Virus record (IMG/VR): IMGVR_UViG_3300047477_000098
Location: 1-62,712 of that record
Source of the DNA: a virus
Lineage: Duplodnaviria > Caudoviricetes
Length of the DNA stretch: 62,712 nucleotides
Reading direction: 5' to 3' (one strand)
In this document: in pieces, positions 11,427-41,089 of the stretch
Layout: each line of letters begins with the position of its first letter
Position numbering within the stretch: position 1 is the stretch's first letter
The notes under the pieces: model-generated
Seen by the model: only the letters and a program-made list of their open reading frames with translations
Databases searched by the model: none
What the model was told of the DNA's origin: nothing
Translations under genes and position numbers: made by a program

Positions 11427-11427
11427 A

Positions 11428-12630
11428 ATGTATATAGTGAAAGAATTGACAGAATGTAAATGTTGCGGATCTAAAAATCTTATCAAGTACTGTGACCTAA
11501 GAAAGCAACCATTAGCTAACTCATTACATGATAAAACTGTACATCTTGAGAAATATGATTTGGCTGTAAATGTATGCTCGAATTGTTTCCACTCTCAGTT
11601 ATCGGTGACAGTTAATCCTGAAATCATTTACAAACACTATCTTTATGTGTCGGGTGTATCTAAGCCATTCATTCAGCACTGTAAAGAACTTGTTTCTAAT
11701 GTTACAAATGTCCATGGTGGAAAAGAACTATCAGTTTTAGATATTGCTTGTAATGATGGAACAATGTTAGAAGAATTCCGAAATGCTGGACATAAAGTAT
11801 TTGGAGTTGATCCTGCCGAGAATATTAGACAGATGTCAATTGAAAAGGGAATTGATGTTGAAGTCGCTTTCTGGAGCAATGATGTTGCAGAAACATTAGG
11901 AAAGACATTTGATGTCATAACAGCTACTAATGTATTTGCTCACGTGGATGATAACTACTCCTTCCTGGAAGCTTGTAAGAAAGTCTTAAATCCTAATGGG
12001 TTGGTAGTCATTGAATTTCCTTATGCCAAAGATATGATTGCTAAGGTTGAGTTTGATACAATCTACCATGAACATATTTCTTACTTCACTGTAAGCTCTT
12101 TCAATGCTCTTGTGACCAGACTAGGATATAAGATCCATAACATACAGAGAACTAATATTCATGGAGGGTCAATCAGATTCTCAATCTCTCTTGACAGAGA
12201 AGAGACAAATGATGTCAGTCTTTTAATGAATGAAGAAGAGAAGTCAAAACTGTATGATGTTGATGCATATAAGTCATTCCAAACACAGATGATTGAAACC
12301 AAGAAAGATATTGAAACTTATCTAAATGGTAAAGAATATATTGGGTTTGGAGCTTCCGCCAAAGGTAACACAATGCTTAACTATTTCAATCTAACCAATA
12401 TGAAATATGTTGTCGATGATACCAAGATCAAGCAAGGGAAATATACACCAGGCTGTGATATTGAAGTGAGACCTGTTAATGAAGGTCTTGATGTTGATGG
12501 TGACCTATATGTTGTTTGTATGTGCTGGAACTTTAAGGATGAAGTTATTCGTAGAATTAAATCAATCCGAAGTGAAGGAAGAACCCATCTTATATTTTAT
12601 GTGCCCAACTTCTATGTGGAACTTATATGA
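11428..12630 (+). CDS. NDP-hexose C-methyltransferase (Zn-binding N-terminus, SAM-dependent)
   Basis: CKCC...QPLAN...CSNC, DIACNDG, TNVFAH, FDTIYHEH, HGGS, GASAKGNT. Confidence 0.9.
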   Translation: MYIVKELTECKCCGSKNLIKYCDLRKQPLANSLHDKTVHLEKYDLAVNVCSNCFHSQLSVTVNPEIIYKHYLYVSGVSKPFIQHCKELVSNVTNVHGGKELSVLDIACNDGTMLEEFRNAGHKVFGVDPAENIRQMSIEKGIDVEVAFWSNDVAETLGKTFDVITATNVFAHVDDNYSFLEACKKVLNPNGLVVIEFPYAKDMIAKVEFDTIYHEHISYFTVSSFNALVTRLGYKIHNIQRTNIHGGSIRFSISLDREETNDVSLLMNEEEKSKLYDVDAYKSFQTQMIETKKDIETYLNGKEYIGFGASAKGNTMLNYFNLTNMKYVVDDTKIKQGKYTPGCDIEVRPVNEGLDVDGDLYVVCMCWNFKDEVIRRIKSIRSEGRTHLIFYVPNFYVELI

Positions 12631-13748
12631 TTAAATATATTGTTTTTGGAGATGGCTTATTAGGAACTGAAATAGTTAGCAATACTGGCTGGGATTATAT
12701 CTCCAGAAAAAAGAATAATCTTGATTTTGGAAAAGATGAAGATTTTCAGAAATATTTGGAGATGGCTAAAAACTATGACACTATAGTGAACTGTATAGCT
12801 TTTACAAAAACATACTCTGAAGATAAAGAAACCAATTGGTTAATAAATTTCAAACGAGTGGTTGAACTTTCTGATTGGTGTAAAGCTAACGGAAAGAAAT
12901 TGATTCACTTCTCTACAAACTATGTGTATTGTGGATCTAAAGAATCACCTTCCGAAGATGACATCCCTGTTCATTGTAGGACTTGGTATGGATATACAAA
13001 ACTTTTGGGTGATTCTTATGTTCAGCTGAATCCAAACTCATTGGTCATAAGAACATCCTATAAAAGTAATCCATTTCCTTATGATAAAGCCATAATGACG
13101 CAAGTTGGTAATTTCGATTATGTTGACGTTATATGTAAACTAATCATAATACTGATAATCAATAATGTGTTAGGTGTTTATAATGTTGGTACAGATATTA
13201 AAACAATGTATGAATTGGCAATTAAAACCAAACCAGATATTGAGAAAATGTATTTGTTGCCAATGAAAGAGATGCCTCAAAATATAACTTTTGACATTTC
13301 CAAAATGAATAAAGTTAGATATAAGATGATAAGTGTTACAGATGATCTTTTAGAGCTAGAGCATCTGAGAGACATAAGAAATAACTGTAGAGAGTTTATG
13401 ACTAACAATACAGATACAATCTCCAAAGACGCACAGATTGAATGGTTCTCCAATCTAACACCAACAAAGAAACCATTCTTATTTTCAGAAGATGAATTTA
13501 TTATAGGATATGGTTTTATTAATATTGTTGATGGTGTGTCGATACTTAGCGGTGGTTTGATTGAGAAATATAGGAATAAGGGTCTTGGAAAGATTCTATT
13601 CAAAACTTTAATTGATATGTGTGATACTGATAAGGTTGATCTTGAAGTTTTGAAAAGTAATCACAGAGCATATAAAACATACAATAAACTTGGATTTGTT
13701 ACTTATTCAGAAGATAATGAAAAATATTCCATGAGGCTTGTTAGATGA
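12627..13748 (+). CDS. RmlD-like NDP-sugar reductase fused to GNAT (PseH-like) N-acetyltransferase
   Basis: GDGLLG, STNYVY, YGYTK (YxxxK); C-terminal IRN...QIEWF...YRNKGLG...NHRAYKTYNKLGF. Confidence 0.8.
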   Translation: MIKYIVFGDGLLGTEIVSNTGWDYISRKKNNLDFGKDEDFQKYLEMAKNYDTIVNCIAFTKTYSEDKETNWLINFKRVVELSDWCKANGKKLIHFSTNYVYCGSKESPSEDDIPVHCRTWYGYTKLLGDSYVQLNPNSLVIRTSYKSNPFPYDKAIMTQVGNFDYVDVICKLIIILIINNVLGVYNVGTDIKTMYELAIKTKPDIEKMYLLPMKEMPQNITFDISKMNKVRYKMISVTDDLLELEHLRDIRNNCREFMTNNTDTISKDAQIEWFSNLTPTKKPFLFSEDEFIIGYGFINIVDGVSILSGGLIEKYRNKGLGKILFKTLIDMCDTDKVDLEVLKSNHRAYKTYNKLGFVTYSEDNEKYSMRLVR

Positions 13749-14467
13749 AAAAAGATTTAAGTATTATAACTGTAAATTACAACCACCGAAGTTTAATAGA
13801 CTTCCAAAGAGATTTGTACAGGAACTCAAATGTGGATGTGTTTGTGGTTGAAAATAGTAATGACGAATCACAGGTTTGTGATTTCAATATAAGAAATCCT
13901 AATAGGTATTCTTTTGACGGAGAGAGTCATGGAAGCTCTATTGATTTGGGTGTTAAAAATACTGAATCAGAATACGTCATTATAATGGATTCAGATTTTA
14001 TTTTATTTGATGTTAAACTAATACCTACTATGATAGAGTACATGAAAGAGCATCAGATTGAAGCATTTGGGACTCCATATGGTGACGGTGAGAGTAACAA
14101 TAGATTTATAGCAAGCAGTCCAGAAACATTTGTAAATATACCTTGTATATATTTCCTAATAGTTAAAAGAACTCTACTGGAAGATGTATCATTCATGATA
14201 GGTCATGATGAATGTTATAGCAATATGCAGAAATATGGATGTTATGTTGAAGTTGGGTTTCAGTTAAGAAAGAAATGTTTTGAAAATAAAATAAAAACTG
14301 AATCATTTCAGATGTATCAACACTCGCCAGGTTATGGTAAATGTTTCTATAAATGGAATGGTGATGATGTTGGGTATCATCACTTTGGTGGATGCCATAC
14401 AAACAAATATGAAGTATTGAATACTCTGGTAGAATTAAGGGGAAGATATAATGATAAGAATGTTTAA
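13745..14467 (+). CDS. Glycosyltransferase family 2
   Basis: LSIITVNYN, VVEN, DSD motif. Confidence 0.8.
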   Translation: MKKDLSIITVNYNHRSLIDFQRDLYRNSNVDVFVVENSNDESQVCDFNIRNPNRYSFDGESHGSSIDLGVKNTESEYVIIMDSDFILFDVKLIPTMIEYMKEHQIEAFGTPYGDGESNNRFIASSPETFVNIPCIYFLIVKRTLLEDVSFMIGHDECYSNMQKYGCYVEVGFQLRKKCFENKIKTESFQMYQHSPGYGKCFYKWNGDDVGYHHFGGCHTNKYEVLNTLVELRGRYNDKNV

Positions 14468-15530
14468 AGTTCGGATGTCCAAGAAGGCATCTAAAGACGT
14501 TAAGAAAGTCCTAGATAGTGGATTTATTGGACAAGGCCCTAAAGTTGAAGAATTTGAAGACCTTCTACAAAAAGAATTAAAAAGTTCGATTAGACCAGTC
14601 ACAGTTAATTCATGCACAAACGCAATTCAACTGGCGCTCCATCTGATTGGTGTTAGACCAGATGATGAAGTTATTTCAACACCTCAGACTTGTTTTGCTT
14701 CTCAGATCGGCATCCTTCAAAATAGAGCAGCTATTAAATGGGCGGATATTGATCCAGCATCAGGTCTCATTGATCCAGTTAGCGTTGAAAAGTTAATAAC
14801 TGATAAAACAAAAGCTATCGTCGCTGTTAACTGGGCCGGAAAGTTTGCAGACTATGAAAAGCTGAAGTCATTTGGAATACCTGTGATTGAAGATGCCGCA
14901 CACACATGGGATGTGTATGAGCATGAAAAGGCACGCGGTGACTATATTTGTTACAGTCTTCAAGCAATCAAGTTCTTAACTGCTTCTGATGGTGGAGTAT
15001 TGATAACTCCTAAAGAACAAGAACATAGAGCAAGACTGCTTAGGTGGTTCGGTCTAGACAGAACTAAAGGTCAATCATTTAGATGTGCACAGAACATTGA
15101 AGAAGCTGGCTTTAAGTACCATATGAATGATGTATGTGCTGCTATAGGCATTGCAAATATTCCAGAAGCTAGAGACTCTGTATTTACCAATAGACGGATT
15201 GCTCAGAGATATTGTAATGCGTTCAAGAATCTGAAGAATGTTAAGGTTTTACCATTTGACAACACTTCATCGTATTGGTTGTATTCTATGATAGTGGAAA
15301 ATACAACCGCTTCTAAGTTTACAGAATATATGACTTCTAAAGGAATAGAAGTTAGTCCAGTCCATTACAGAAATGATCTATATTCATGTGTTTCTGATTA
15401 CAAAATTGGAGATCTGCATGGAGTTGATACCTTTACTGAAAAGCAGATAAACATTCCAATCGGATGGTGGTTGACACGAAAGGAAATAGCTGAAATAATA
15501 AAGTGTGTCACGGACTTTGATTCATTATGA
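14451..15530 (+). CDS. DegT/DnrJ/EryC1/StrS PLP-dependent sugar aminotransferase
   Basis: GQGPKVEEFE, NSCTNA, IEDAAH, SLQAIK, DGG, GFKYHM. Confidence 0.93.
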   Translation: MIRMFKVRMSKKASKDVKKVLDSGFIGQGPKVEEFEDLLQKELKSSIRPVTVNSCTNAIQLALHLIGVRPDDEVISTPQTCFASQIGILQNRAAIKWADIDPASGLIDPVSVEKLITDKTKAIVAVNWAGKFADYEKLKSFGIPVIEDAAHTWDVYEHEKARGDYICYSLQAIKFLTASDGGVLITPKEQEHRARLLRWFGLDRTKGQSFRCAQNIEEAGFKYHMNDVCAAIGIANIPEARDSVFTNRRIAQRYCNAFKNLKNVKVLPFDNTSSYWLYSMIVENTTASKFTEYMTSKGIEVSPVHYRNDLYSCVSDYKIGDLHGVDTFTEKQINIPIGWWLTRKEIAEIIKCVTDFDSL

Positions 15531-20375: not shown

Positions 20376-22837
20376 TGGAGAAAAATATGTATAGTAGAGA
20401 AGAGGCTGTTGCCGCAAGCCTAGTTTATTTCGACGGCGATAATTTGGCCGCAAATGTGTTTGTTGATAAGTATGCTCTGAAAGATAATGACGGAAATATT
20501 CTGGAAGATACTCCAGATAAGATGCATGATAGACTTGCCAAAGAGTTCGCAAGGATTGAACAAAAGTATCCAAATCCTCTCTCCGAAGCAGAGATACTTC
20601 ATTCAATTAAAAATTTCAAGTATATTGTTCCACAAGGCTCTCCGATGGAAGGCATTGGAAACAACCATAGAGTTACTAGCTTATCTAATTGCTATGTTAT
20701 TCCTTCGCCAGAAGATTCTTACGGTGGTATATTTAAAGCGGACCAGCAAGAAGCTCAGTTGATGAAGAGACGCGGTGGTGTTGGAATGGATATTTCAAAC
20801 ATTCGTCCTAAGGGAATGTCTACCAATAATGCAGCAAAGACTACAGACGGTATAGCAGTGTTTATGGATAGGTTCTCAAACACTTGTCGTGAAGTCGCAC
20901 AGAACGGTAGACGCGGCGCCTTGATGTTAACTATTGATTGCCGACACCCAGAAGTGGAAACATTCATCAATATTAAACGAGATAAGACCAGAGTAACTGG
21001 AGCCAATATCTCAGTTAAGATGAGTGATGACTTTATGGAAGCTGTTAAGAACGATACAACATATCAACAGAAGTGGCCAATCAATTCTCCAAACCCTTCT
21101 ATTGTTAGAGATGTCAACGCAAGAGAAATTTGGGAACAGATAATTGATGCAGCATGGACATCTGCCGAACCAGGAATATTGTTTTGGGATAACGCAATAA
21201 AGAATACTCCATCCGATATCTACACAGAAGAAGGATTCGGTAGTGTGTCAACTAATCCCTGCGGTGAAATTATTCTCAGTCCTTCGGACAGCTGTCGCCT
21301 CATATCACTCAACCTTCTATCGTTCGTGATGAACCCATTCACTGAAAAGGCACAATTTGATTATATCGGATTCAAGTCTTATGTCAAAATGGCTCAGCGT
21401 TTGATGGATGATATGATTGATCTTGAGTTGGAAAAATTAGATGCCATTCTTAATAAAATTGATGCTGATAATGAACCAGAATCCGTTAAGAGAGAAGAGA
21501 AAGAGTTGTGGATCTCAATCAGAGAAGCTTGTCTAAATGGACGTAGAACTGGATTGGGAATCACTGCACTTGGTGATACTATAGCTGCACTTGGAATCAT
21601 ATACGGATCTGCTGAGTCAATAGAGACTACTGAGAGCATCTACAAGACCTTGGCTCTTGGTGCACATGAATCATCTATCGACATGGCAGAAGAGCGTGGA
21701 TCGTTTCCAGTCTTTAATTACGACAAAGAAAAGTCCCATGAGTATCTTTCAAGAGTCATCTGTGAACTTGGACCAGAATATGTTTTGAAGTGGAGGAAGT
21801 TCGGTCGTAGAAATATCGCACTGACCACAACAGCTCCTACAGGAACTGTTTCCTTAATGACACAAACAACCTCTGGAATTGAGCCATGTTTCCAGCCGGT
21901 CTATAAGCGCCGTAAGAAAATTCTTTCTGGCAGCACTGATAGAGTGGATCATATTGATGTGAACGGCGATAAGTGGACTGAGTTTGAAGTTTGTCATCAT
22001 CAGTTCTCCGAGTGGAGAAAGATTTCAGGTAAGACTAATGTTGAAGATTCTCCATACTACAAGGCAACTGCTAATGATGTTGATTGGTCTGCAAGCGTTG
22101 AGCTACAAGCTGTCGCACAAAAGTGGATTGACCATAGCATAAGCAAGACTTGTAATCTTCCAAACTCTGCCACCAAAGAATTAGTGTCAGAGATATATAT
22201 GAAGGCTTGGGAAGTTGGATGCAAGGGTTTCACAATCTATCGTGACGGATGCAGAGATGGAGTTCTTCTAACTGGATCAGAAGAGAAGAAGTCTACATTC
22301 GAGACCAAGGACGCACCTAAGAGACCAGATATTCTTTCTTGCGGAATCAATCAAGTCAAGATTAAGAATGATAGCTGGACTGTTCTTGTTGGATTGATGG
22401 AAGATAAACCTTATGAGATTTTTGCTGGACTATCCAAGTTTGTTTCTATTCCAAAGTCTCTTACAAAGGGTCAGTTAATTAAGACTAAGATTAAGGGAAG
22501 TAAGAAATCCTCTTATGACCTGAGACTTGGAGAGAGTGATGATTCAGTAGTTATCAAAGATATTGGAAAGGTGTTTGAGAATCCAACCGAGGGTGAGTTC
22601 ACAAGAATGATCTCCCTAACTCTTCGTCATGGTGCACCAATCCAATATGTTGTCGAACAACTACAGAAGGATGAAGAGAGTGATATGTATTCATTCTCAA
22701 AGGTCATCGCAAGAGTATTGAAAAAGTATATTCCTGAAGGTGCAGTTACAAGCGAGACTTGCCCAAGCTGTGGATCAAAGATTGTTTACATTGAAGGATG
22801 TAAGCAGTGTCAAAATTGTGCTTGGAGTAAATGTTAA
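20375..22837 (+). CDS. nrdJ: Class II (adenosylcobalamin) ribonucleotide reductase
   Basis: SLSNC, RRGGVG, GRRGALM, TNPCGE, APTGT, SGIEP, SISKT, YRDGCR, C-terminal Zn ribbon; no NrdB in window. Confidence 0.93.
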   Translation: MEKNMYSREEAVAASLVYFDGDNLAANVFVDKYALKDNDGNILEDTPDKMHDRLAKEFARIEQKYPNPLSEAEILHSIKNFKYIVPQGSPMEGIGNNHRVTSLSNCYVIPSPEDSYGGIFKADQQEAQLMKRRGGVGMDISNIRPKGMSTNNAAKTTDGIAVFMDRFSNTCREVAQNGRRGALMLTIDCRHPEVETFINIKRDKTRVTGANISVKMSDDFMEAVKNDTTYQQKWPINSPNPSIVRDVNAREIWEQIIDAAWTSAEPGILFWDNAIKNTPSDIYTEEGFGSVSTNPCGEIILSPSDSCRLISLNLLSFVMNPFTEKAQFDYIGFKSYVKMAQRLMDDMIDLELEKLDAILNKIDADNEPESVKREEKELWISIREACLNGRRTGLGITALGDTIAALGIIYGSAESIETTESIYKTLALGAHESSIDMAEERGSFPVFNYDKEKSHEYLSRVICELGPEYVLKWRKFGRRNIALTTTAPTGTVSLMTQTTSGIEPCFQPVYKRRKKILSGSTDRVDHIDVNGDKWTEFEVCHHQFSEWRKISGKTNVEDSPYYKATANDVDWSASVELQAVAQKWIDHSISKTCNLPNSATKELVSEIYMKAWEVGCKGFTIYRDGCRDGVLLTGSEEKKSTFETKDAPKRPDILSCGINQVKIKNDSWTVLVGLMEDKPYEIFAGLSKFVSIPKSLTKGQLIKTKIKGSKKSSYDLRLGESDDSVVIKDIGKVFENPTEGEFTRMISLTLRHGAPIQYVVEQLQKDEESDMYSFSKVIARVLKKYIPEGAVTSETCPSCGSKIVYIEGCKQCQNCAWSKC

Positions 22838-23871
22838 AGTGTGAACTGTGTTCCGAAATCTTTGAAAATAATAGGGGTGGACAATTAACATCACATCTTA
22901 GGAAATGTCATTCCATATCATTAGAAGAATACAAAATAAAAGTGTTTCATAATGATGTGGTTCCTAAATGTGGTTGTGGATGCGGCAGTGCCGCCCCTTT
23001 TGTTAGGGGTGAGTTTAAAGATTATATTTATGAACACAAATCCCAAAAAAATAAGATTGATATGTATTTAAAGCTCAACGGTCATCCTAAATGTTTAACT
23101 TGTGGTGCTGAGACTCGTTTTAATTATCGCGGTGGCATAGTTAAATATTGTTCAACAAAATGTATTCCTAGAATTGTTAAACAAAAGAACATGACTCATG
23201 GATTCTGTAATCCATTGGTTCAGGAAAAGATACGACAGAATACAATTATTAAATATGGTGTGGATAATATTTCTAAAACTCAAGTCATTAAAGATAAAAT
23301 ATCTGAACTATCTAAAGGTAAAGTTAGATACTACCCAACAACTGAACATAGACAAAAAATGTCTAATTTTATGATTGATATGTGGAAGAATCAAGATTAT
23401 AAGATTTCGCAGTGTGAGTTGATAAAAAAATCAACAAATACTGTAAATGAGAAACTCCGACGTAGGAATTTGGCAATATCAAGAATGGTTGATGGTGCTG
23501 TTCCATTCAAAGGAAAATCATCAAAACTGCATATTAAAATTAGAGAATATTTAAATCTGTCTGATCTTGGATTTGTATCGGAATATAATATTGGTCCATA
23601 TATTGTTGATGAAATTAACACAGAATTAGGAATCGTTATTGAAATTAATGGAGACTATGTGCACGCAAATCCAAATAAGTATAGTGCTGAAAGTTTAATA
23701 AGACTACGAGGAACTGCATATATGTCTATTGAAAAATGGAAAAATGACGAAGTTCGTACAAATTTCTTGGTTGATTGTGGTTATTGTGTTTTTGTTATTT
23801 GGGAAAGCGATGACCTTGATATAGTTAAAAAAACATTATTGGATTTGGTGTATAGAAGTTATGACAGCTGA
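22831..23871 (+). mobile_element. Free-standing putative homing endonuclease (Zn fingers plus Vsr/DUF559-like PD-(D/E)xK domain)
   Basis: CELC..H, PKCGCGCG, KYGVDNI, C-terminal YIVD...IEINGDYVH...IWESD; overlaps nrdJ stop. Confidence 0.75.
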
Positions 23872-28525: not shown

Positions 28526-29380
28526 ATGGAAAGCTATCTAAAATTGTTAAGAAAGATTCTCTCCGAAGGTGTAGAGAAAGATAATCGAACTGGGATAAAA
28601 ACAAAGTCTATATCTGGTCATATGTTTGAACATGATATGTCTACAGGATTCCCACTTCTAACCACAAAGTTTGTTTCGCTTAAAACTGTTGCAGTCGAAC
28701 TCGAAGGCTTCATCAAAGGCATCACTTCTAAGAAATGGTTCCAAGATAGAAAATGTCGCATCTGGGATGACTGGTGTAACCCCCAAGTAGTTCCTTACGG
28801 AAATGATGAAGAAACTAAATCCAAGATGAAAGCCGAAGATGACCTAGGTTTAATTTATGGTAATCAATGGAGAGACTTTAGAGATCCTGATAACTCAGAG
28901 CCCGGTGATGGTCTTGACCAATTGAAAATTATAGTGAACCGATTAAAGACTAACCCTACAGATAGAAGAATGATCTGTATGGCTTGGAATCCTTTAGCAC
29001 TAGACTACCAAGCATTACCTCCGTGCCATTATAGCTGGCAAGTCTTATCAGATGGTAACACGCTAGACCTTCTATGGAGCCAGCGCAGTTGTGACGTCCC
29101 ACTCGGAATTCCGTACAACATAGCCTCTTATGCTCTCCTATTAAAGCTTCTGGCTAAAGAAGTCAATATGAAAGAAGGTAAGTTGGTAGGTTTTCTAGCT
29201 GACTGTCAGATCTACCAGAACCAAAATGATGGAGTTACTGAACAGCTCACAAGAACTCCATTAGAACTGTGTCAGGTTGATATTCCCAATTTCAAATCTA
29301 TATATGATTGGGAATCTACTGATCTTGAGACAAAGGATTATAAACATCACGGTAAGATTAGTATGCCAATAGCTGTATGA
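28526..29380 (+). CDS. thyA: Thymidylate synthase
   Basis: FPLLTTK, IWDDW, YGNQWR, ALPPCH, QRSCDVPLGIPYNIASY; uninterrupted. Confidence 0.97.
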   Translation: MESYLKLLRKILSEGVEKDNRTGIKTKSISGHMFEHDMSTGFPLLTTKFVSLKTVAVELEGFIKGITSKKWFQDRKCRIWDDWCNPQVVPYGNDEETKSKMKAEDDLGLIYGNQWRDFRDPDNSEPGDGLDQLKIIVNRLKTNPTDRRMICMAWNPLALDYQALPPCHYSWQVLSDGNTLDLLWSQRSCDVPLGIPYNIASYALLLKLLAKEVNMKEGKLVGFLADCQIYQNQNDGVTEQLTRTPLELCQVDIPNFKSIYDWESTDLETKDYKHHGKISMPIAV

Positions 29381-30872: not shown

Positions 30873-31360
30873 TAGGATTGATTGCTGCTGTTGCCAAGAA
30901 TAATGTTATCGGTGGAAACAATAACATACCGTGGAGTTGTCCAAATGATTTGCAATTCTTCAAAAGGATAACAACTGGTTCGAATGTGATCATGGGTAGA
31001 AAGACTTTCGATTCTTTAGGAAGACCTCTACCAAATAGAACTAACATAGTGATCTCCAGAAGTGAACCTGACGAATGTCCAGCAAATGTTTTGTACGCCT
31101 ATTCGTTAGAAAATGCTCTTGAGATTATTAGTTTACTTTCTAACTATAGGGATGCATGGATAATTGGAGGCTCTCAGATTTACAAGGAAGCTTTGACACA
31201 AGAACTCCCAGACAAAATATTAATATCCAGAATGAATTTTGAAGCTGATGGTGATGTTCTCTTTCCTGAGATACCATCAAGTTATCATGTAACTGACATT
31301 ATGAACATTGATCCAGAGTTCTCTGTTTATAGATATGATCGGTTGCACACGCAAAAGTAA
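30869..31360 (+). CDS. frd: Dihydrofolate reductase
   Basis: IAAVAKNNVIG, IPW, DLQFFK, IMGRKTF, PLPNR, IIGG. Confidence 0.96.
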   Translation: MIGLIAAVAKNNVIGGNNNIPWSCPNDLQFFKRITTGSNVIMGRKTFDSLGRPLPNRTNIVISRSEPDECPANVLYAYSLENALEIISLLSNYRDAWIIGGSQIYKEALTQELPDKILISRMNFEADGDVLFPEIPSSYHVTDIMNIDPEFSVYRYDRLHTQK

Positions 31361-31371
31361 AATGCTATAAT
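31343..31371 (+). promoter_or_regulatory. Sigma70-type promoter with conserved spacer
   Basis: TTGCAC-17nt(acgcaaaagtaaaatgc)-TATAAT. Confidence 0.75.
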
Positions 31372-31378
31372 TATAAAA

Positions 31379-31897
31379 ATGAGAACACTAATGGATAATA
31401 ACACTCTGGTCATCGAACCAGAAAAACACGGCTTCACAAAAGAAGCTGTAGTAATTACAGCTAAGGGTAAACGATCAATTCAAGATGTCCAAAGAGGTGA
31501 CTTTGTGTTGACTCACAAAAACCGCTTTAAGAAGGTCTACAAGACTTCTAAGGACATCAACACGACTACAGTTCATACCATTCGCGCAGTCGGCTTAGAA
31601 CCCCTCCAAACGACAGCTGGACAGATGTTCTTGACCAAGAAGTCTATTGTGGATTCTCCAGCTTGGGTTGAAGCTAGAAATATTGAAACTGATTGGTATA
31701 TCGGTGTGCCTGATAAGGTTGACTTTGAATTAGTTGATCCGAAAGCTTACATCGACCAAATGATTTGGATTAAAGTTAAGTATAGTAAAGGATCTGATAA
31801 GAATCATTCTACAACTTATACTTTATCTGTTGAAGATGATGAATCCTTTATAGTCAATTGCTATCCAGCATTTACGGAGGACACATGGAAGAAATAA
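31379..31897 (+). CDS. Stand-alone Hint (intein-like) domain lacking catalytic termini
   Basis: GFTKEAVVITAKGKRSIQDVQRGDFVLTH (block A, Gly at Cys1), TTAGQMF (block B without His), TYTLSVEDDESFIVN (block F), no terminal HN. Confidence 0.75.
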   Translation: MRTLMDNNTLVIEPEKHGFTKEAVVITAKGKRSIQDVQRGDFVLTHKNRFKKVYKTSKDINTTTVHTIRAVGLEPLQTTAGQMFLTKKSIVDSPAWVEARNIETDWYIGVPDKVDFELVDPKAYIDQMIWIKVKYSKGSDKNHSTTYTLSVEDDESFIVNCYPAFTEDTWKK

Positions 31898-33279
31898 AGT
31901 TTTGGCAAGCACCTACTATGGCAGATGTTCATGAGGGTGAAGAAAAGAATCTATTTACCCATGTGTCATTATTCGCTGGTCTTGGTGGTTCATCGACAGG
32001 CATGAGACTTGCTGGTGCACACACTCTTGGGATTTCAGAATTTATTGATTATAGAAATGACATCTATGGTAGAAATTATCCTAAGTGTCAAATCTGGAAT
32101 GAAGATATTCGTGAACTCTCTGGTGATGAGATTCTCCGACGCATTGGATTGAAGAAAGGCGAACTTGACCTTTTAGATGGATCTCCTCCTTGTTCTGATT
32201 TCTCTACCAATAATATGGGCAAGAGAGAGAAGCAATGGGGTAATGAGAAGAAGTATTCCAATAAGCGCCAAAGAGTTGATGACCTGTTTTATGAGTTCGC
32301 AAGAGTTCTAAAGGAAGTCCAACCAAAAGTCTTTGTTGCTGAGAATGTGAAAGGATTAACGGTAGGTAATGCTAAAACTATTTTGGGAGATCGAAGCAAA
32401 AGTCTTTCATCACTCATGGATATTGAGGAAGAAGATGAAGTATCAGATCTTACCAAGTTTAATGGAAAAGATGAAACGATTGTTGAAACCCTAAGAGCGT
32501 GTGGTTATAAGGTATCTTACCAAGTAATGAACTGTGCTCATTATGGTATACCTCAAATCAGAGAGCGTCTCATTTTCATCGGCATTCGTAATGATCTTCC
32601 TTACTCTCCAAGTTTTCCAAAACCATTTACAAAGACCAAGCAGATAATTGGAAAAGATGCTATTGGAAACTTCTTGTTTAACGGTGGTAATGTTGTTCTA
32701 AATCCTGAGACGATGACCTATAGGTATGTTAAGGAATACTTCCCTCCACATACAACTAAACTACAAGTCCTAAACAAAATGAAGGATGAGAAGTTTGGAA
32801 CTTATGCTCATCGCTACCACAGAGATAATTGGGATAAAGTCTTTTACACCATAGTTGCACAAGACGGAAACAATGTCATCCACTCTTTGGTTGATAGATA
32901 TTTCTCAGTCTGTGAGGCTAAGAAGATTCAAGGCTTTCCAGATGATTTCAATGATGGTCTCCCTCCTTTCAAGAGAATAAAGGTATCTGCAAGTGATTTA
33001 ATCAATCCAGATTTTTATTCAAAACTTAACTACAAATGGAAAGACCAAGGTCATGCTTGTGGTGATGTTAAGAATCTCATTGAACTCGGAAGATGGAAAT
33101 GGGATGATATGAAAGATCAGAAGATATTCGACTTAGATTTGGAAACTGAATATGATAAGACTCAAAAATATCTACACAGTTCTAAGTCGTGGGAGAATCT
33201 TGGAAGAGCTGTCCCGCCACTGCTTTATAAAGCAGTTGGGGAACACATCTATGAGAATGTCCTTAAACATCTGAAGTAA
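31885..33279 (+). CDS. C5-cytosine DNA methyltransferase family, predicted carboxymethyltransferase
   Basis: FAGLGG, EDI, GSPPC, ENV, QIRER; motif X is LGRAVPP instead of GNAVPP; GGAGG RBS. Confidence 0.9.
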   Translation: MEEIKFWQAPTMADVHEGEEKNLFTHVSLFAGLGGSSTGMRLAGAHTLGISEFIDYRNDIYGRNYPKCQIWNEDIRELSGDEILRRIGLKKGELDLLDGSPPCSDFSTNNMGKREKQWGNEKKYSNKRQRVDDLFYEFARVLKEVQPKVFVAENVKGLTVGNAKTILGDRSKSLSSLMDIEEEDEVSDLTKFNGKDETIVETLRACGYKVSYQVMNCAHYGIPQIRERLIFIGIRNDLPYSPSFPKPFTKTKQIIGKDAIGNFLFNGGNVVLNPETMTYRYVKEYFPPHTTKLQVLNKMKDEKFGTYAHRYHRDNWDKVFYTIVAQDGNNVIHSLVDRYFSVCEAKKIQGFPDDFNDGLPPFKRIKVSASDLINPDFYSKLNYKWKDQGHACGDVKNLIELGRWKWDDMKDQKIFDLDLETEYDKTQKYLHSSKSWENLGRAVPPLLYKAVGEHIYENVLKHLK

Positions 33280-33289
33280 ATCCGTCATT

Positions 33290-33329
33290 TCCTGGACCTC
33301 TAAATATTAGAAATAATATGAGGTCAGGA
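33290..33329 (+). promoter_or_regulatory. RBS-sequestering hairpin containing a late promoter
   Basis: tcctggacctc-taa-atatta-gaaa-taatat-gaggtcagga; TAAATA at 33301; SD GAGGT in the 3' arm. Confidence 0.65.
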
Positions 33330-33331
33330 TT

Positions 33332-34243
33332 ATGGATGCAAAGTTTATTTCGGATTATAAAGACTTGTTGGAATCAATCATACTAAAGCAGTGTGAAGGA
33401 AAGAAGAATATCGCTGTTGCACTTTCGGGTGGTATCGACAGCGCACATCTTTTGTTCGCATTGCTTTCTTTGGGAAAGTCTGTAAGAACATATTCTCTAC
33501 ACAGAGAAGGAATTATATCAACAGATTATAGATTATCTGAAAAGAATAGTAAGATTCTAAACATTCCTTTTACAGAAGTTATTCTTCCAAATAAATTGGA
33601 TATTAAGAGATTGATCCACATCATGAAGGACCACGAGTTAAAAAATAAAGCTGCTGTCGAATGTACATATACTATGGATTTTGTGTGGGAAGCTATGCAG
33701 AAAGACGGTATTGATTGTGCATTCTCAGGAGTTGGACAAGATAATTATTTTGGAACTACAAAGAAAGCAAGCATCCATTACAGTCAGACACTTGATCTAA
33801 ACCAAGAGTTTAGGAAGATGTCATTCGACCATTTCGATTATGACAACACTGGCGTTTGGGGAATGGGAAAACAGCCAACAGTATGGACAGAACTTGCAAA
33901 AGAGCGTGGTATAAAATTAGTTGCTCCTGCTTATGATAGGGCGGTGTATGAGTTCTTCTATCCAGTACCATGGAAGACTATGAATACTCCTAAGCAGAAG
34001 TATCCTTGCTGGGCAATCTATCCAGAATATGTTAACAAATGTTCTCTGGAAAAACATTCCGATCTTCAATGTGGTGATACTCAAATACGAGAATTGTTTG
34101 AACCACTTTTGAAAGATCCTTCCATCAATACGAAAGGAAGAACTAGAATGTTGGATATGTTTAGGGATTGGCAAGATAGACTTTGCGGACCAGAAGAAGT
34201 AAAGATAAACAAAAAGTACAGTCATATAATTGAAGAGGATTGA
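33332..34243 (+). CDS. Asparagine-synthetase-like ATP-dependent amide ligase (no glutaminase domain)
   Basis: PP-loop ALSGGIDS, FSGVGQDNYFG, LQCG. Confidence 0.85.
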   Translation: MDAKFISDYKDLLESIILKQCEGKKNIAVALSGGIDSAHLLFALLSLGKSVRTYSLHREGIISTDYRLSEKNSKILNIPFTEVILPNKLDIKRLIHIMKDHELKNKAAVECTYTMDFVWEAMQKDGIDCAFSGVGQDNYFGTTKKASIHYSQTLDLNQEFRKMSFDHFDYDNTGVWGMGKQPTVWTELAKERGIKLVAPAYDRAVYEFFYPVPWKTMNTPKQKYPCWAIYPEYVNKCSLEKHSDLQCGDTQIRELFEPLLKDPSINTKGRTRMLDMFRDWQDRLCGPEEVKINKKYSHIIEED

Positions 34244-34588
34244 ATGTCAAAGATTTTAGTTGTATCTGCTCCATCAGATGACCACCACGAAACTTGGGTG
34301 GTTGATAAGAAAGAAATGAATCATATCTACAAAATATTTGGTTGCAATAGATGGGAAGAGCTTGAGGATTGTGAAGTGGAAGAGCTTGGCGATTCCTTTG
34401 TTAAAAAGATCGGTAAGCGTCTTGGTAAAGAACCAACAGTTCTGGAAGATGTTTATGAATACTTTAAGCAGATAATTGCGGATGATAGCATTACACTTAC
34501 TCAGTTCTCACATGATGTAGTGGAATGTATCAATACTGATAGAGGTTCTTGGTCGTCACATGTTTGGGTTAAAACGAAAGGTAATTAA
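34244..34588 (+). CDS. Hypothetical protein
   Basis: ORF abutting neighbours, GAGG RBS. Confidence 0.6.
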   Translation: MSKILVVSAPSDDHHETWVVDKKEMNHIYKIFGCNRWEELEDCEVEELGDSFVKKIGKRLGKEPTVLEDVYEYFKQIIADDSITLTQFSHDVVECINTDRGSWSSHVWVKTKGN

Positions 34589-35736
34589 TGAAAATTGGAT
34601 TGGTTAGAGAGCAGAGTAATACTCCCGGAATGGGATCACTCTTTATAAATTACGATGGTGCAGCGAACATAGAGACTCCGGGATTTCGGGGTCTTTCTCA
34701 TCTGTGGGAGCATTGTGCTTGTCACTCTTATGACTCCTTACAAGAGAGACTAATGGCAGCTGGTATTGTAGCAAATGCTATGACCTCTGACCGGAATGTA
34801 GTTTTCTATTGGATGGGATTGGATGAGAAGATTGAAGAATTCCAGAAGGAATTGCTGGATCTAATCTACTACATTCCCACTAAGGAAGAGTTTGAGAATG
34901 AGAAGAAGATCGTTATGCAGGAGTATGAAGATTATGTCTCGAAGCAGAACTTCGTATTCTCCAACATCATGCGTAAGTATTTCGATTACTTCGGTCCTAT
35001 TGGCTACAGAGATGATATTGTGAATATCACTTATACAGACTTCCTATGTTTTGTAAATAAGAACTTCTCTATTCCAACATCTATTGTTCGCATTGGTAAT
35101 TCTGAAACCATTGTCGAACTTACTAAGGATATTCAGTTCCAGACTGCTGCTGATCCAATCCCTCTAAATGAGTTGGCAACAGGAATCCTGACACACGTTG
35201 AGAATCCTTCTAAGTTTCCAACATCAACTTTGATTGCGGACTGGGCAACATTCTTCACAGATGAACTGTCAGTACAAGATGTTAAGTTGATTAACGCACT
35301 GTTCTCAAAGGGGCTTAGTTCTCCATTCTATCAAGAGATTCGTGAGAAGCGCGGACTTGTATACCATTGTGGAACCGATATTGAATTGGTGGATGCAGAG
35401 ACTTACGTTTGGTTCTTCTATGCTGGATGTACCGAGATGTCTATGGTCGAAGTTCGTTCTGTAATGAAGGACATTGTCAGTAATTACAAAGACTATATAA
35501 CTACCGAAAGATTTGAATCAGTGGTTGAATTATATAGAAATAATGCGAAGATGTCAAAGATCGGGAATCATGGTCATTCTTACATTAACAAGTTTTTTGT
35601 TAATGAGACTGAGATCCTTGATGAAGAATATCTAAATGGATTAGATTATAATGAATTCCAAAAGAGCCTTGAGTTCTTCAAAAACTCTATGGAATTCCTA
35701 CATGAAGCGCATAATGGTCCGGAGCTTAGTATATGA
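34588..35736 (+). CDS. M16 (insulinase) family zinc metallopeptidase
   Basis: GLSHLWEH (HxxEH), NAMT, EKKIVMQE, SPFYQEIREKRGLVY. Confidence 0.9.
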   Translation: MKIGLVREQSNTPGMGSLFINYDGAANIETPGFRGLSHLWEHCACHSYDSLQERLMAAGIVANAMTSDRNVVFYWMGLDEKIEEFQKELLDLIYYIPTKEEFENEKKIVMQEYEDYVSKQNFVFSNIMRKYFDYFGPIGYRDDIVNITYTDFLCFVNKNFSIPTSIVRIGNSETIVELTKDIQFQTAADPIPLNELATGILTHVENPSKFPTSTLIADWATFFTDELSVQDVKLINALFSKGLSSPFYQEIREKRGLVYHCGTDIELVDAETYVWFFYAGCTEMSMVEVRSVMKDIVSNYKDYITTERFESVVELYRNNAKMSKIGNHGHSYINKFFVNETEILDEEYLNGLDYNEFQKSLEFFKNSMEFLHEAHNGPELSI

Positions 35737-36422
35737 TAGAACCTGTAAAGGAATTTGCTTTCACAACAGTGGAGAACTTTGATGAACATATCGACATTTC
35801 AATACCGAATTACTCTTTTCTTGCTAACCAATGCAAGCAATATTCAGACTATTTTATCCGAGAGCACACTAATGTTGTTGACCTCGGCTGTTCTTCGGGC
35901 AAGTTCCTAAACAGTTTAAAAACAGTTCCGAATACTAACTACTACGGTTATGATGTAGCAGATAATCTGTTCCTCAAACCAAATGAGAATGTTCAGCTTT
36001 TGAAGCGTGACTTGGTCGAACTTGCAGATTCTACTCATTGTAGGTCTCCTCATTCAGAATGCTTCCCACAAGACATCAGTTTTGCCATCTCCCTCTTCAC
36101 CCTTCAGTTCCTTCCTCCAATCAAACGGAAAGAAGTCATTGCTGCCGTTGGTGACCACATGGTTAAAGGTGGAGCATTCATTTCCTGTGAGAAGATTTAT
36201 TCTACAGATGCTAAGTTGCAGGACGTAACTAACAGCATCTACTACGAGTTTAAGAATAAGTCATTCACTGGTGATCAGATCCTTAGCAAGGAACGTGATC
36301 TCAGAAGAATTATGACTCCTCAAAGTCTTGCCGATAGCATGAAACAATTGGAATGTATTGGTAAACCGAATCTATTCTTCATGTCCTATAACTTTGTAGG
36401 CATCATAGTAATAAAGGAATAA
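35733..36422 (+). CDS. cmoA: CmoA-like carboxy-S-adenosylmethionine synthase
   Basis: FDEHIDISIPNY, DLGCSSG, FTLQFL, GGAFISCEK, FK...ILSKERDL; CmoA-family pattern. Confidence 0.82.
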   Translation: MIEPVKEFAFTTVENFDEHIDISIPNYSFLANQCKQYSDYFIREHTNVVDLGCSSGKFLNSLKTVPNTNYYGYDVADNLFLKPNENVQLLKRDLVELADSTHCRSPHSECFPQDISFAISLFTLQFLPPIKRKEVIAAVGDHMVKGGAFISCEKIYSTDAKLQDVTNSIYYEFKNKSFTGDQILSKERDLRRIMTPQSLADSMKQLECIGKPNLFFMSYNFVGIIVIKE

Positions 36423-36423
36423 T

Positions 36424-36597
36424 ATGGCACAGTTCAGACTTGGCAGAGATGGGTATGAATTTGAACAGTTACATTCGAGTGCGTGCTGTATGCCAAATAT
36501 TGATGTTGAACAACCAAAGCCAAATGCTGACATAATCGACCGTCTAGATACTATAATTGAACTGTTACGAAAGTTAACAGATAGAGGAACAAAGTGA
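36424..36597 (+). CDS. 57-aa hypothetical protein (not in ORF track)
   Basis: AAGGA RBS; MAQFRLGRDG...LLRKLTDRGTK fills the gap before dUTPase. Confidence 0.55.
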   Translation: MAQFRLGRDGYEFEQLHSSACCMPNIDVEQPKPNADIIDRLDTIIELLRKLTDRGTK

Positions 36598-37157
36598 TGT
36601 ATATTGATACAATTTATGTGGACCTTCCACTCGAACTAAAAGCTATTCACAAAGATGCTGTAGTCCCAACTAAGGGATCCAAAGATGCCGCCTGTCATGA
36701 CCTGTCTTCTGTAGAAGCAAAAACTATTGGACCACATTCTACCGCAGTTGTAAAGACAGGGCTTAAGGTTGAATATATTGACAGTGCCTTTAAACTTCAC
36801 ATTTATTCTCGTTCTGGCCTTGCTGCTAAGAAAGGTGTATTTGTTTTGAACGCGCCTGGTGTTATCGACTCAGACTATCGCGGTGAGTTGATGGTCATTC
36901 TGCACAATTCTTCAGACATTCCGTTTGAGATTAGTGTTGGTGATAGAATCGCGCAGATTGCCGCCGAGGTTGCAGTTCAATCTGTATACCGTGTTCAAGC
37001 ATTTGAATCGAATGAATATCTGTGTTCTTCAAATGAGGAACGTATTCGTGGTGAAGGTGGACTTGGATCGACTGGAGTTTCTTTAGAACCGCTTACTGCT
37101 GATATACAGATTGTCACCGCTGAGGGAACTATTACTCCTTCACAGACGACTATTTAA
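36594..37157 (+). CDS. dut: Trimeric dUTPase
   Basis: ACHDL, SRSGLA, GVIDSDYRGE, GDRIAQ, RGEGGLGSTG. Confidence 0.95.
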   Translation: MMYIDTIYVDLPLELKAIHKDAVVPTKGSKDAACHDLSSVEAKTIGPHSTAVVKTGLKVEYIDSAFKLHIYSRSGLAAKKGVFVLNAPGVIDSDYRGELMVILHNSSDIPFEISVGDRIAQIAAEVAVQSVYRVQAFESNEYLCSSNEERIRGEGGLGSTGVSLEPLTADIQIVTAEGTITPSQTTI

Positions 37158-38604: not shown

Positions 38605-39546
38605 ATGAGTAAAAAGAAACTATCCTATACATTATTTACAGAGAAGTATCGGCCGTCATCCGTAGCTGATATGCTTCTACCGGATAAGTATAAGAAGTTT
38701 TTCTTGAACCTTGTGAAAGAAGGAGAAGTGCCAAATCTCCTTCTTTTTAGTTCTACCCCAGGGTCCGGAAAAACATCTGTAGCTAAAGCCATCTGTGACG
38801 ATATTGATGCTGATTACCTCTACATTAATATTTCATCTGAATCGGGTATTGATACTTTGAGAACAGATATTGCCAGATTCGCTTCTGGTAAGAATCTCTC
38901 TGGTAAAAAGAAGATCGTTATCTGTGATGAGTTTGATGGATCTACACCAAAGCTTCAAATGGCTATGCGTGCTGCTATGGAAGAGTTCCATAATTCTTGT
39001 CGGTTTATCTTGACCTGCAATTATGTGAATAAAATTATTCCAGCTCTTCGTTCACGTTTGATGGAATATGATTTCAATATGAATACCAAAGATATTCGTG
39101 AAGAGATGCTTCCAAAGGTCCAACGTAGATTGAAGATGGTTCTTCAGAATGAGAGTGTTGAGTATAAAGAAGATATTGTGGATCAGCTCGCTGAGAATCT
39201 CTATCCAGACATTCGTAAGATGTACGGAACTCTTCAACAATACTCAAAGCAAAATGGAATTATTGACAGTAACATTTTCACCTTTGAATCTGTTGAAGAT
39301 CAATTCTATGATTTGATTCTGACAAAGAAGTTCACAATGGCAAGACAGTTCATGTTAGATTCTGGTTACTCTTTTGATGATATGTATTCTGACCTTTATC
39401 ACAATCTAATACCAAGAATAGCTGACAAGTCCAAGCAAGCACAGATTATTCTTGTCATAGCAGAATGGCAATACCGAGCATCATTTAGCACTGATCCGGA
39501 AATTCCTTTTGCTGCCATGCTTGTTGAAATTATGTCAAACCTATAA
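38605..39546 (+). CDS. gp44: Clamp loader large subunit gp44
   Basis: EKYRP, PGSGKT, DEFD, CRFILTCN, LRSR. Confidence 0.95.
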   Translation: MSKKKLSYTLFTEKYRPSSVADMLLPDKYKKFFLNLVKEGEVPNLLLFSSTPGSGKTSVAKAICDDIDADYLYINISSESGIDTLRTDIARFASGKNLSGKKKIVICDEFDGSTPKLQMAMRAAMEEFHNSCRFILTCNYVNKIIPALRSRLMEYDFNMNTKDIREEMLPKVQRRLKMVLQNESVEYKEDIVDQLAENLYPDIRKMYGTLQQYSKQNGIIDSNIFTFESVEDQFYDLILTKKFTMARQFMLDSGYSFDDMYSDLYHNLIPRIADKSKQAQIILVIAEWQYRASFSTDPEIPFAAMLVEIMSNL

Positions 39547-40116: not shown

Positions 40117-40412
40117 GCTATATACAAAATTATTTGGTAGATCCGAAAACTACCGCAAGTATTGAAATTAGGAAAGAAGATAGAAAATATTCTGTCGATG
40201 TTAAGCTAACCAACGGAATGACTTATAACATTCCTCCAGTTGGGGCAAAGAGATTGTTTTATTATGATCTGAAAGATGTTCTACAAACGATCTATAAGAG
40301 AACTGTATATGTCTTTAGATTCCTAGACAATATAGATAATAAAGAGAATGCTGTTAATCTGAAATCTTCAGAGACACATAAAATACCAGATGGAGTTCAA
40401 TTATTTCTATGA
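40113..40412 (+). CDS. Hypothetical protein
   Basis: ATGA-coupled ORF. Confidence 0.6.
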   Translation: MSYIQNYLVDPKTTASIEIRKEDRKYSVDVKLTNGMTYNIPPVGAKRLFYYDLKDVLQTIYKRTVYVFRFLDNIDNKENAVNLKSSETHKIPDGVQLFL

Positions 40413-41089
40413 TTAAGTTTGTTGTGGCAAGATATGAAGGTGATGTGTATGATACATTTCTAGGACCATGTGTCGATGGAAAGTATGAAGTAGCTCAGGT
40501 GTTTGATGGTAATGGAATATATGAGAAGTACAATGCTGGCATTTCTGCACTCTCCATTGCTAATGACGACATTGTAATCTTCTGTCATGGTGATGTGAAG
40601 ATAATTGATCCAGACTTTGAAGATAAGGTTCTATTTGTATTCGACACTCTACCTAAGCTTGGAGTTGCTGGTGTTATAGGTGCTACAGAGCTGCATGAAA
40701 CTGCTGGATGGTGGCTATCTGATAGATCATTACATCGCGGTCACGTTATGCAGTGGGTTGATGGAAATGAAAAGAATAAGTATCACATGGTTAAGACTAA
40801 GGGAAATTACAATAACATCTGTGTCGTTGATGGTCTCTGTGTCATGGTCAGAGGTGAACTTGTGAATAAGCTGAAGTTTGATACTGAAGTTTGCCCTGGA
40901 TCTTATAACTTCTACGAATACGATTACTGCTTAGACGCTAAGTGGTTAGGATATGAAGTTGGAGTATTTGACATCCTTCTTGAACATAAATCTGCTGGTG
41001 AAGGTATCCATCAAGATGATTGGAAGAACAATAAAGAACTATTCTTAACCAAATGGAAGAATAGAGGACTTAGATTTCCATTAAGATAA
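40409..41089 (+). CDS. GT2-like glycosyltransferase
   Basis: YNAG, FCHGDV, GVAGVIG, VDGL, FYEYDYC, HKSAG. Confidence 0.78.
   Translation: MIKFVVARYEGDVYDTFLGPCVDGKYEVAQVFDGNGIYEKYNAGISALSIANDDIVIFCHGDVKIIDPDFEDKVLFVFDTLPKLGVAGVIGATELHETAGWWLSDRSLHRGHVMQWVDGNEKNKYHMVKTKGNYNNICVVDGLCVMVRGELVNKLKFDTEVCPGSYNFYEYDYCLDAKWLGYEVGVFDILLEHKSAGEGIHQDDWKNNKELFLTKWKNRGLRFPLR

Follow-up and report, generated by a model that had tools for sequence, protein, structure and literature searches.

The window analysed here, the IMG/VR virus record IMGVR_UViG_3300047477_000098, is a linear fragment of 62,712 bases with an estimated genome completeness of ~32% (CheckV), and it includes a T4-like replication and nucleotide-metabolism module. 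Within it, the DHFR and dUTPase genes flank six co-directional open reading frames (ORFs) on the plus strand. Five of these ORFs occupy positions 31885-36422 and include homologues of CmoA, CmoX and CmoY, the three enzymes of a DNA hypermodification system described in Synechococcus phage S-B43. We consider it highly probable that this block is a divergent copy of the S-B43 system. Homology, motifs, fold and gene context support this reading directly, whereas all of the enzymatic activities, the motif targeted in DNA and the nature of the amine are inferred. The features of the block are as follows.

31885-33279, plus strand: cmoX, predicted DNA cytosine C5-carboxymethyltransferase, long form of 464 amino acids, assigned by homology and motifs
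32182-32193, plus strand: S-P-P-C motif with the catalytic Cys103 (residues 100-103), invariant in alignments A3 and A7
32950-33180, plus strand: insertion of ~77 amino acids that separates motif IX (FPDDF) from motif X, present only in the long-form CmoX subfamily
33205-33207, plus strand: codon of Arg441 in motif X (G-R-A-V-P-P), the equivalent of Arg350 in the CmoX of S-B43
33332-34243, plus strand: cmoY-like gene for a predicted ATP-dependent amide ligase of 303 amino acids, consisting of a PP-loop, asparagine-synthetase C-terminal domain only
33425-33442, plus strand: PP-loop S-G-G-I-D-S (CmoY residues 32-37), invariant
34244-34588, plus strand: orf114, small acidic protein, whose first base directly follows the cmoY stop codon
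34588-35736, plus strand: M16B-type zinc peptidase-like protein of 382 amino acids, overlapping orf114 by 1 nucleotide and cmoA by 4 nucleotides
34699-34713, plus strand: H-x-x-E-H motif of the M16 protein (residues 38-42), intact
35733-36422, plus strand: cmoA, predicted carboxy-SAM synthase of 229 amino acids, assigned by homology

GGAGG occurs at 31876-31880, just upstream of the cmoX ATG (31885). The gap between cmoX and cmoY is 52 nucleotides, and cmoA lies 2.4 kb 3' of cmoX. The sequence-only reading had placed a C5-methyltransferase gene, a PP-loop gene and a CmoA-like gene in this cluster, and all three were found at those places on the plus strand. The co-location of the three genes is far beyond chance.

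The S-B43 system was reported by Yang et al. (Nat Commun 2025, December 2025; PMC12783734). According to the main text of that paper, CmoA converts S-adenosyl-methionine (SAM) and prephenate into carboxy-SAM (Cx-SAM), CmoX, a homologue of DNA cytosine C5-methyltransferases (C5-MTases), uses only Cx-SAM to produce 5-carboxymethylcytosine (5cxmC) at GC motifs, and CmoY, a homologue of asparagine synthetase, consumes glycine and ATP to form an amide on the carboxylate. The same text describes a crystal structure of the S-B43 enzyme (SpCmoX, 8YF3) in which Arg350 contacts the carboxylate of Cx-SAM at the place of Asn304 in M.HhaI, and states that the R350N mutant used neither SAM nor Cx-SAM (PMC12783734). 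The virion DNA of S-B43 is reported there to contain the modified base as the glycine amide, with free 5cxmC absent, and carboxymethylation alone to block HhaI in vitro (PMC12783734). A survey of IMG/VR v4, UniProtKB and MGnify phage sequences in the paper yielded 5,615 candidate CmoX proteins with both S-P-P-C and the Arg residue, with 4,257 CmoA and 2,251 ligases as same-contig partners; the ligase clusters were of several kinds, some with amines that are not known (PMC12783734). The cyanophage precedent to which the sequence-only reading had pointed is CmoA/CmoX/CmoY of S-B43 (PMC12783734). The chemistry it had proposed, namely the transfer of a carboxymethyl group from carboxy-SAM to cytosine C5 followed by amidation, with protection against restriction, has been shown experimentally for S-B43, of which the proteins of the window are full-length homologues.

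All three predicted enzymes align with their S-B43 counterparts over the full length: CmoX with SpCmoX at 38% identity (BLASTP, E 4e-64), CmoY with SpCmoY at 31% identity (E 3e-37), and CmoA with SpCmoA, which is biochemically active, at 33% identity (E 6e-42). The likeness extends to the S-P-P-C motif, the carboxylate-binding Arg residue, a PP-loop ligase that is free of a glutaminase domain, and a T4-like phage as the carrier. The gene order is different, being cmoX-cmoY-orf114-M16-cmoA in the window, cmoA-cmoY-cmoX in S-B43 and the IMG/VR loci L060 and L061, and cmoA-cmoX in S-CRM01. Of 80 IMG/VR loci with a CmoX relative, CmoA was present in the flanks of 60 and a CmoY homologue in the flanks of 26. 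Single-protein scans of IMG/VR with CmoX and with CmoY gave no relative, and alignments were needed to find relatives.

CmoX matches the Pfam family DNA_methylase with an E-value of 8.4e-45. In an HMMER search against the PDB, its top match was SpCmoX (8YF3, E 1.2e-59), compared with an E-value of 5.6e-13 for M.HhaI, and the alignment to 8YF3 places Arg441 on Arg350 of SpCmoX. The sequence-only reading had noted an Arg codon at exactly this site, and positions 33193-33225 indeed translate to E-N-L-G-R-A-V-P-P-L-L, with the Arg codon at 33205-33207. Besides S-P-P-C, the Glu residue of E-N-V and the Arg residues of motif VIII are invariant in alignments A3 and A7. In a collection of 5.8 billion proteins, all of the 120 nearest CmoX homologues carry the Arg residue (119 by pattern and P0130 by eye), and S-P-P-C is present in 119. 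An engineered parallel is the N374K variant of M.MpeI, in which exchange of the motif-X Asn for a basic residue enables a C5-MTase to accept carboxy-SAM (as cited in PMC12783734), and which, according to the Discussion of the same paper, targets CG. The CmoX of the window is set apart from that variant by its description: it is natural, has Arg rather than Lys, and is accompanied by its own CmoA.

The window's CmoX is also longer than that of S-B43 (464 versus 372 amino acids), owing to an acidic insertion after motif VI and the insertion of ~77 amino acids between motifs IX and X. The latter is missing from the proteins of S-B43, S-CRM01, L060 and L061 and is present in all 15 sequences of alignment A7, down to 40% identity, and no Pfam match was found for the segment 32935-33195 (nothing better than E 0.08). 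These sequences define a long-form CmoX subfamily of at least 15 members, all with the motif-X Arg residue. The extra segment of ~77 amino acids may change the target recognition of CmoX.

CmoY consists of the synthetase half of an asparagine synthetase. Its residues 9-144 match positions 2-136 of the 354 positions of the Pfam Asn_synthase profile, TIGR01536 is matched at positions 233-369 of 517, and a profile of the CmoY family matches residues 232-368 of human asparagine synthetase (ASNS) and 209-355 of AsnB. The AlphaFold2 (AF2) model of CmoY (predicted local distance difference test score, pLDDT, 88.5) superposes over ~300 columns on four synthetase domains, namely those of carbapenam synthetase, human ASNS, beta-lactam synthetase and AsnB (Foldseek; template modelling score by query 0.58-0.69). 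No glutaminase domain was detected in the 303 amino acids by Pfam, by TIGR01536 or in the whole AF2 model, which bears out the earlier description of a PP-loop enzyme lacking this domain. CmoY thus shares with asparagine synthetase B and the beta-lactam and carbapenam synthetases the PP-loop ATP-pyrophosphatase fold and, by prediction, acyl-adenylate chemistry. Unlike those enzymes, however, it has no N-terminal glutaminase or glutaminase-like domain, and its predicted carboxylate substrate is a DNA base.

Homologues of CmoY were compared from the loci L059-L063 and L147-L223 and the proteins P0026-P0040. In the subfamily of the window's CmoY (16 sequences), S32-G-G-I-D-S37 is invariant, as are 38 columns in total. 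The motif that follows a conserved His residue separates the CmoY-like ligases into at least three classes: L-Q-C-G-D-x-x-I-R-E in the class of the window, where it is invariant in the 16 sequences, L-Q-L-G-(gap)-S-N-I-D-H in SpCmoY, and L-Q-L-G-D-S-x-I-A in a third, larger class in IMG/VR. In a tree of 46 rows, from which the truncated ORFs L192 and L193 were left out, the clade of the window's CmoY is sister to the SpCmoY clade with a support of 95/88, and the third class is further off. Two CmoY-like proteins are long forms (502 amino acids in L194 and 465 in L203) and may be of the glutaminase-bearing kind.

The assignment of cmoA, proposed earlier as a CmoA-like gene, held as well. The best NCBIfam model is TIGR00740 (E 6.7e-23, full length), and in the PDB no sequences other than the three CmoA/YecO structures 1IM8, 4IWN and 4GEK reach E<=0.01; these three align end to end with the window's protein at E-values of 9.3e-15 to 1.7e-13. 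Its score of 81.6 bits is below the equivalog cut-off of TIGR00740 (193.3 bits). It nevertheless falls inside the span of four other phage CmoA proteins (77.9-144.4 bits), one of which is SpCmoA with 115.6 bits, and all of these are below 193.3. Because the active SpCmoA and three other phage CmoA proteins also fail the cut-off, the failure of the window's CmoA says little; on these scores, the cut-off separates bacterial from phage CmoA and not active from inactive enzymes. The protein also resembles, end to end, the CmoA of the bacterial CmoA/CmoB pathway that forms cmo5U in tRNA (4GEK, 1IM8). In contrast to that pathway, the predicted acceptor is C5 of a DNA cytosine rather than ho5U in tRNA. 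The 62.7-kb record, which represents ~32% of the genome, yielded neither a CmoB family match above cut-off nor a tRNA gene. We read the block as a CmoA/CmoX/CmoY system because it encodes three full-length homologues and the record has no CmoB match or tRNA gene.

In the proposed mechanism, CmoA would combine SAM with host prephenate to give carboxy-SAM. CmoX would then flip a target cytosine out of the double-stranded phage DNA, Cys103 would attack C6, and the carboxymethyl group would be transferred to C5 with Arg441 holding the carboxylate of the cofactor, so that the predicted product is 5-carboxymethylcytosine, the putative substrate of CmoY.

Two further genes, orf114 and the M16 peptidase-like gene, lie between cmoY and cmoA. 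The M16 protein matches both PF00675 and PF05193 (inactive C-terminal M16 domain). Across 19 sequences, its residues H38, E41, H42, E105 and E112 do not vary. Among solved structures, the family profile (A1) best matches 3HDI (E 7.7e-25), from the M16B processing proteases. Relatives of 42-85% identity exist in the protein search, whereas a metagenome scan with the close M16 subfamily gave only relatives of <=37% identity. Short M16B-type peptidases of ~368-382 amino acids with an intact zinc motif are spread across large and huge phages (loci L003-L058, on contigs of up to 476 kb, including the megaphage records LR7565xx). A literature search by title and abstract found no paper on phage M16 or insulinase peptidases, and the words peptidase, intein, M16 and insulinase are absent from the main text of PMC12783734. 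For orf114, seven relatives were found among 1.84 billion representatives (P0042-P0048). Four of the seven are 221-237 amino acids long, with the orf114 domain at the C-terminus and an extra helical N-terminal part of ~110 amino acids. Two motifs are conserved in the family, D-H-H close to the N-terminus and R-G-S-W-S-S towards the C-terminus. orf114 corresponds to no family in Pfam, PHROGs or NCBIfam, three of the fused relatives had no Pfam match better than E 0.08, and a scan with the orf114 alignment (A6) found no relative. The AF2 model of orf114 is confident, with a pLDDT of 86; Foldseek found no PDB match to it at E<=0.001, and its ESM Atlas hits were all below 0.9.

The distribution of these two genes suggests that they are not linked to the cmo genes in general. 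Neither M16 nor orf114 occurs at any of the 80 IMG/VR loci with a CmoX relative. Conversely, CmoX, CmoY and CmoA were absent from all of the 55 IMG/VR and 80 metagenome loci with an M16 relative, and CmoA was absent from the four whole virus records with an M16 relative, although these negatives rest on distant M16 relatives (~20-38% identity) and many short contigs. At locus L006, M16, dUTPase and gp45 follow each other in the order of the window, with other, unrelated genes upstream and no cmo genes. In our reading, M16 is a resident gene of the phage backbone that came to be flanked on either side by inserted cmo genes. M16 and orf114 are, most likely, resident genes of the lineage and not parts of the pathway.

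Several observations weigh against a simple equation of the block with the S-B43 system. The three proteins share only 31-38% identity with the characterised enzymes, and the activities are inferred from homology. The target-recognition domain of C5-MTases lies in the region between motifs VIII and IX. In CmoX, this region aligns poorly with that of SpCmoX, and the protein carries two insertions that SpCmoX does not have; therefore, a GC target cannot be assumed for the window's enzyme. CmoY, for its part, has a motif that never varies within its own subfamily but is not the one of SpCmoY and, given also the identity of 31%, glycine as its amine is a guess. Finally, from cmoY through orf114 and M16 to cmoA, each gene adjoins the next or shares up to 4 nucleotides with it, and the longest contigs are equal in size for the M16 relative P0002 and the CmoX relative P0050 (22189), for P0003 (M16) and P0026 (CmoY) (10608), and for P0005 (M16) and P0051 (CmoX) (8140). 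These equal sizes, and they only, hint that the linkage of M16 with the cmo genes has been kept within the lineage. A lineage-specific role of M16 and orf114 would accommodate this arrangement, but we regard such a role as improbable.

A more definite form of that idea is an extended pathway in which M16, orf114 or both join the modification, for example by trimming a peptide or a protein-borne amine coupled by CmoY or by generating the amine donor, so that the final base would not be the glycine amide. The close packing of the four co-directional genes, the H-x-x-E-H motif and downstream Glu residues of M16 that are invariant in 19 sequences, the equal contig sizes and the divergence of the CmoY motif from that of the glycine ligase are all compatible with it. 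However, phage genomes are as a rule tightly packed, the shared contigs are deduced from equal sizes only, the CmoX loci described above have neither M16 nor orf114, the M16 loci have no cmo genes and the four whole records no CmoA, and L006 keeps the M16-dUTPase-gp45 order in the absence of cmo genes. We consequently regard the extended pathway as quite unlikely. A hitherto undescribed base might also arise if CmoY of the L-Q-C-G-D-x-x-I-R-E class coupled an amine other than glycine, with the translationally coupled M16 and orf114 helping to make or trim the adduct, or with an amino sugar from the DegT cluster at 9661-15530 (described below) as the amine. This would be the most novel outcome, and it is unlikely.

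The remaining alternatives concern the three core enzymes. That 5-carboxymethylcytosine is the end product, with the CmoY-like enzyme acting elsewhere or being inactive, gains some plausibility from the 54 of 80 CmoX loci that have no CmoY homologue in their flanks and from S-CRM01, which has cmoA and cmoX only. Carboxymethylation alone thus seems viable, and in vitro it already blocks HhaI (PMC12783734). CmoY, however, keeps its PP-loop and 38 invariant columns, is encoded 52 nucleotides 3' of cmoX and belongs to the sister clade of a proven ligase, and the amide was the only form reported from S-B43 virion DNA in the main text of the paper (PMC12783734), all of which makes an end at 5cxmC decidedly improbable. 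It is very hard to believe that CmoX is an ordinary 5-methylcytosine methyltransferase located by chance near unrelated methyltransferase-fold and PP-loop genes. Pfam and NCBIfam models do identify it as nothing more specific than a C5 DNA methylase, but its motif-X Asn is replaced by Arg, CmoA accompanies CmoX at 60 of 80 loci, and the trio matches that of S-B43 over the full length. Moreover, wild-type SpCmoX accepted only Cx-SAM, and placing Asn at position 350 left it unable to use either cofactor (PMC12783734). Least probable of all, to the point of being nearly negligible, is that CmoA chiefly drains host SAM as an anti-defence measure, or feeds the formation of cmo5U in tRNA, and does not serve DNA modification. 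The Discussion of PMC12783734 does raise SAM depletion as a possible side effect of CmoA, but a CmoX of the Cx-SAM type lies in the same block, and the partial record has neither a CmoB match above cut-off nor a tRNA gene. The copy of the CmoA/CmoX/CmoY system thus remains our preferred reading of 31885-36422.

The chemistry, its rationale in restriction evasion and a wide distribution in phage metagenomes are already in print, and the 2025 survey probably includes this very IMG/VR record. The window therefore adds breadth and not a new principle. Beyond marine and freshwater cyanophages, the published 5-carboxymethylcytosine system now also reaches an uncultured, deep-branching T4-like phage from freshwater and wastewater, and the window brings out variants, namely the long-form CmoX subfamily, a distinct ligase class, which matches the amine question of the 2025 paper itself, and inteins at the catalytic cysteine of CmoX.

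The inteins were found among the 120 nearest CmoX homologues, six of which (P0050, P0057-P0059, P0061 and P0062; 616-648 amino acids) contain a mini-intein. Lying in frame, it separates S-P-P from the catalytic Cys residue, begins with Cys, ends with His-Asn, and is followed by the Cys residue of C-S-D-F-S. One of these proteins, P0050, is 96% identical to the window's CmoX over the aligned 78% of the query. In the window, by contrast, cmoX is uninterrupted, and a separate ORF with a Hint domain lies directly upstream:

31344-31371, plus strand: promoter-like site (TGCACA, 16 nucleotides, TATAAT, with TG), just 5' of the start of the Hint-domain ORF; consensus match only
31379-31897, plus strand: Hint-domain ORF of 172 amino acids, overlapping the start of cmoX by 13 nucleotides

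Promoter-like consensus sites are hardly enriched in this region, with 23 found against 19.4 expected in shuffled sequences.

The Hint-domain ORF matches Pfam Hint_2 with an E-value of 4.8e-5, which is below the cut-off of the family, and no PDB match was found at E<=1. Both this ORF and CmoX match phrog_36001, which comprises intein-bearing phage C5-MTases. Among proteins, it best matches the intein inside the CmoX homologue P0061 (26% identity at E 1e-13; one stretch of 14 residues is identical), and it is a homologue of the P0061 and P0062 inteins. It has Gly in place of the first Cys of the intein, Gln in place of the His of block B, and no terminal His-Asn, and its tail runs into the ribosome-binding site of cmoX. 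With its own ATG, as a separate ORF, with the splicing residues gone and only weak Hint-fold homology left, it fails every defining feature of an intein; therefore, it is best called a free-standing, apparently splicing-dead intein relic. A mis-assembly as the origin of this ORF was rejected, because contigs assembled in three other studies run across the junctions of the Hint-domain ORF with DHFR and with cmoX (X5, 31460-31997; X6, 31768-32317; X8, 31300-31785), and no alternative joints were seen.

Public runs with a matching stretch come from freshwater, wastewater and sludge metagenomes. In the wastewater run X5, from a separate study, contigs at ~96-97% identity span all 30 bins of 31300-36500. 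A freshwater metatranscriptome library (run X6) contains contigs of 100% identity over parts of the Hint-domain ORF, cmoX, orf114, M16 and cmoA, which does not in itself demonstrate transcription.

The replication genes of the record encode a family-B DNA polymerase, UvsX/RecA, a DnaB-type helicase, gp32 and a primase-like Toprim protein. The record also encodes a class II ribonucleotide reductase, thymidylate synthase, DHFR and dUTPase (Pfam), and a gp45-type sliding clamp that was recognised by tblastn likeness to locus L006; an ORF at 38605-39546 is read, tentatively, as the clamp loader. The DNA polymerase is ~30% identical to gp43 of cultured cyanomyoviruses, and a megablast search of 31379-37157 against 50,697 phage records gave no matches. 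On account of these two results, the phage is placed, by sequence comparison, in a deep-branching, uncultured T4-like lineage. Its backbone is accordingly very far from that of S-B43, and its habitat is freshwater and wastewater. Directly after cmoA, an ORF of 57 amino acids (36424-36597) has no Pfam match better than E 0.08.

Other parts of the record also carry genes of nucleotide and sugar metabolism. The thymidylate-synthase homologue at 28526-29380 (Pfam E 3e-85) has Asn in the conserved N-I-A-S-Y segment. An Asn residue in this segment marks dUMP-specific enzymes and not dCMP hydroxymethylases, and a thymidylate synthase of the dUMP type would fit a cytosine modification made after replication. 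Inside the replication module, a sugar cluster at 9661-15530 contains genes for a GT1 glycosyltransferase, a DUF5672 protein, a C-methyltransferase (Pfam Methyltransf_13/_14), an RmlD-like reductase-GNAT fusion, a GT2 glycosyltransferase and a DegT/DnrJ aminotransferase, and could be a source of an amino-deoxy sugar. Another glycosyltransferase is encoded at 40409-41089. Directly 3' of the class II ribonucleotide reductase gene, an ORF of 346 amino acids (22831-23871) has matches to DUF7487 and the endonuclease-like DUF559 that are near or below cut-off, and it may be a homing-endonuclease-like gene.

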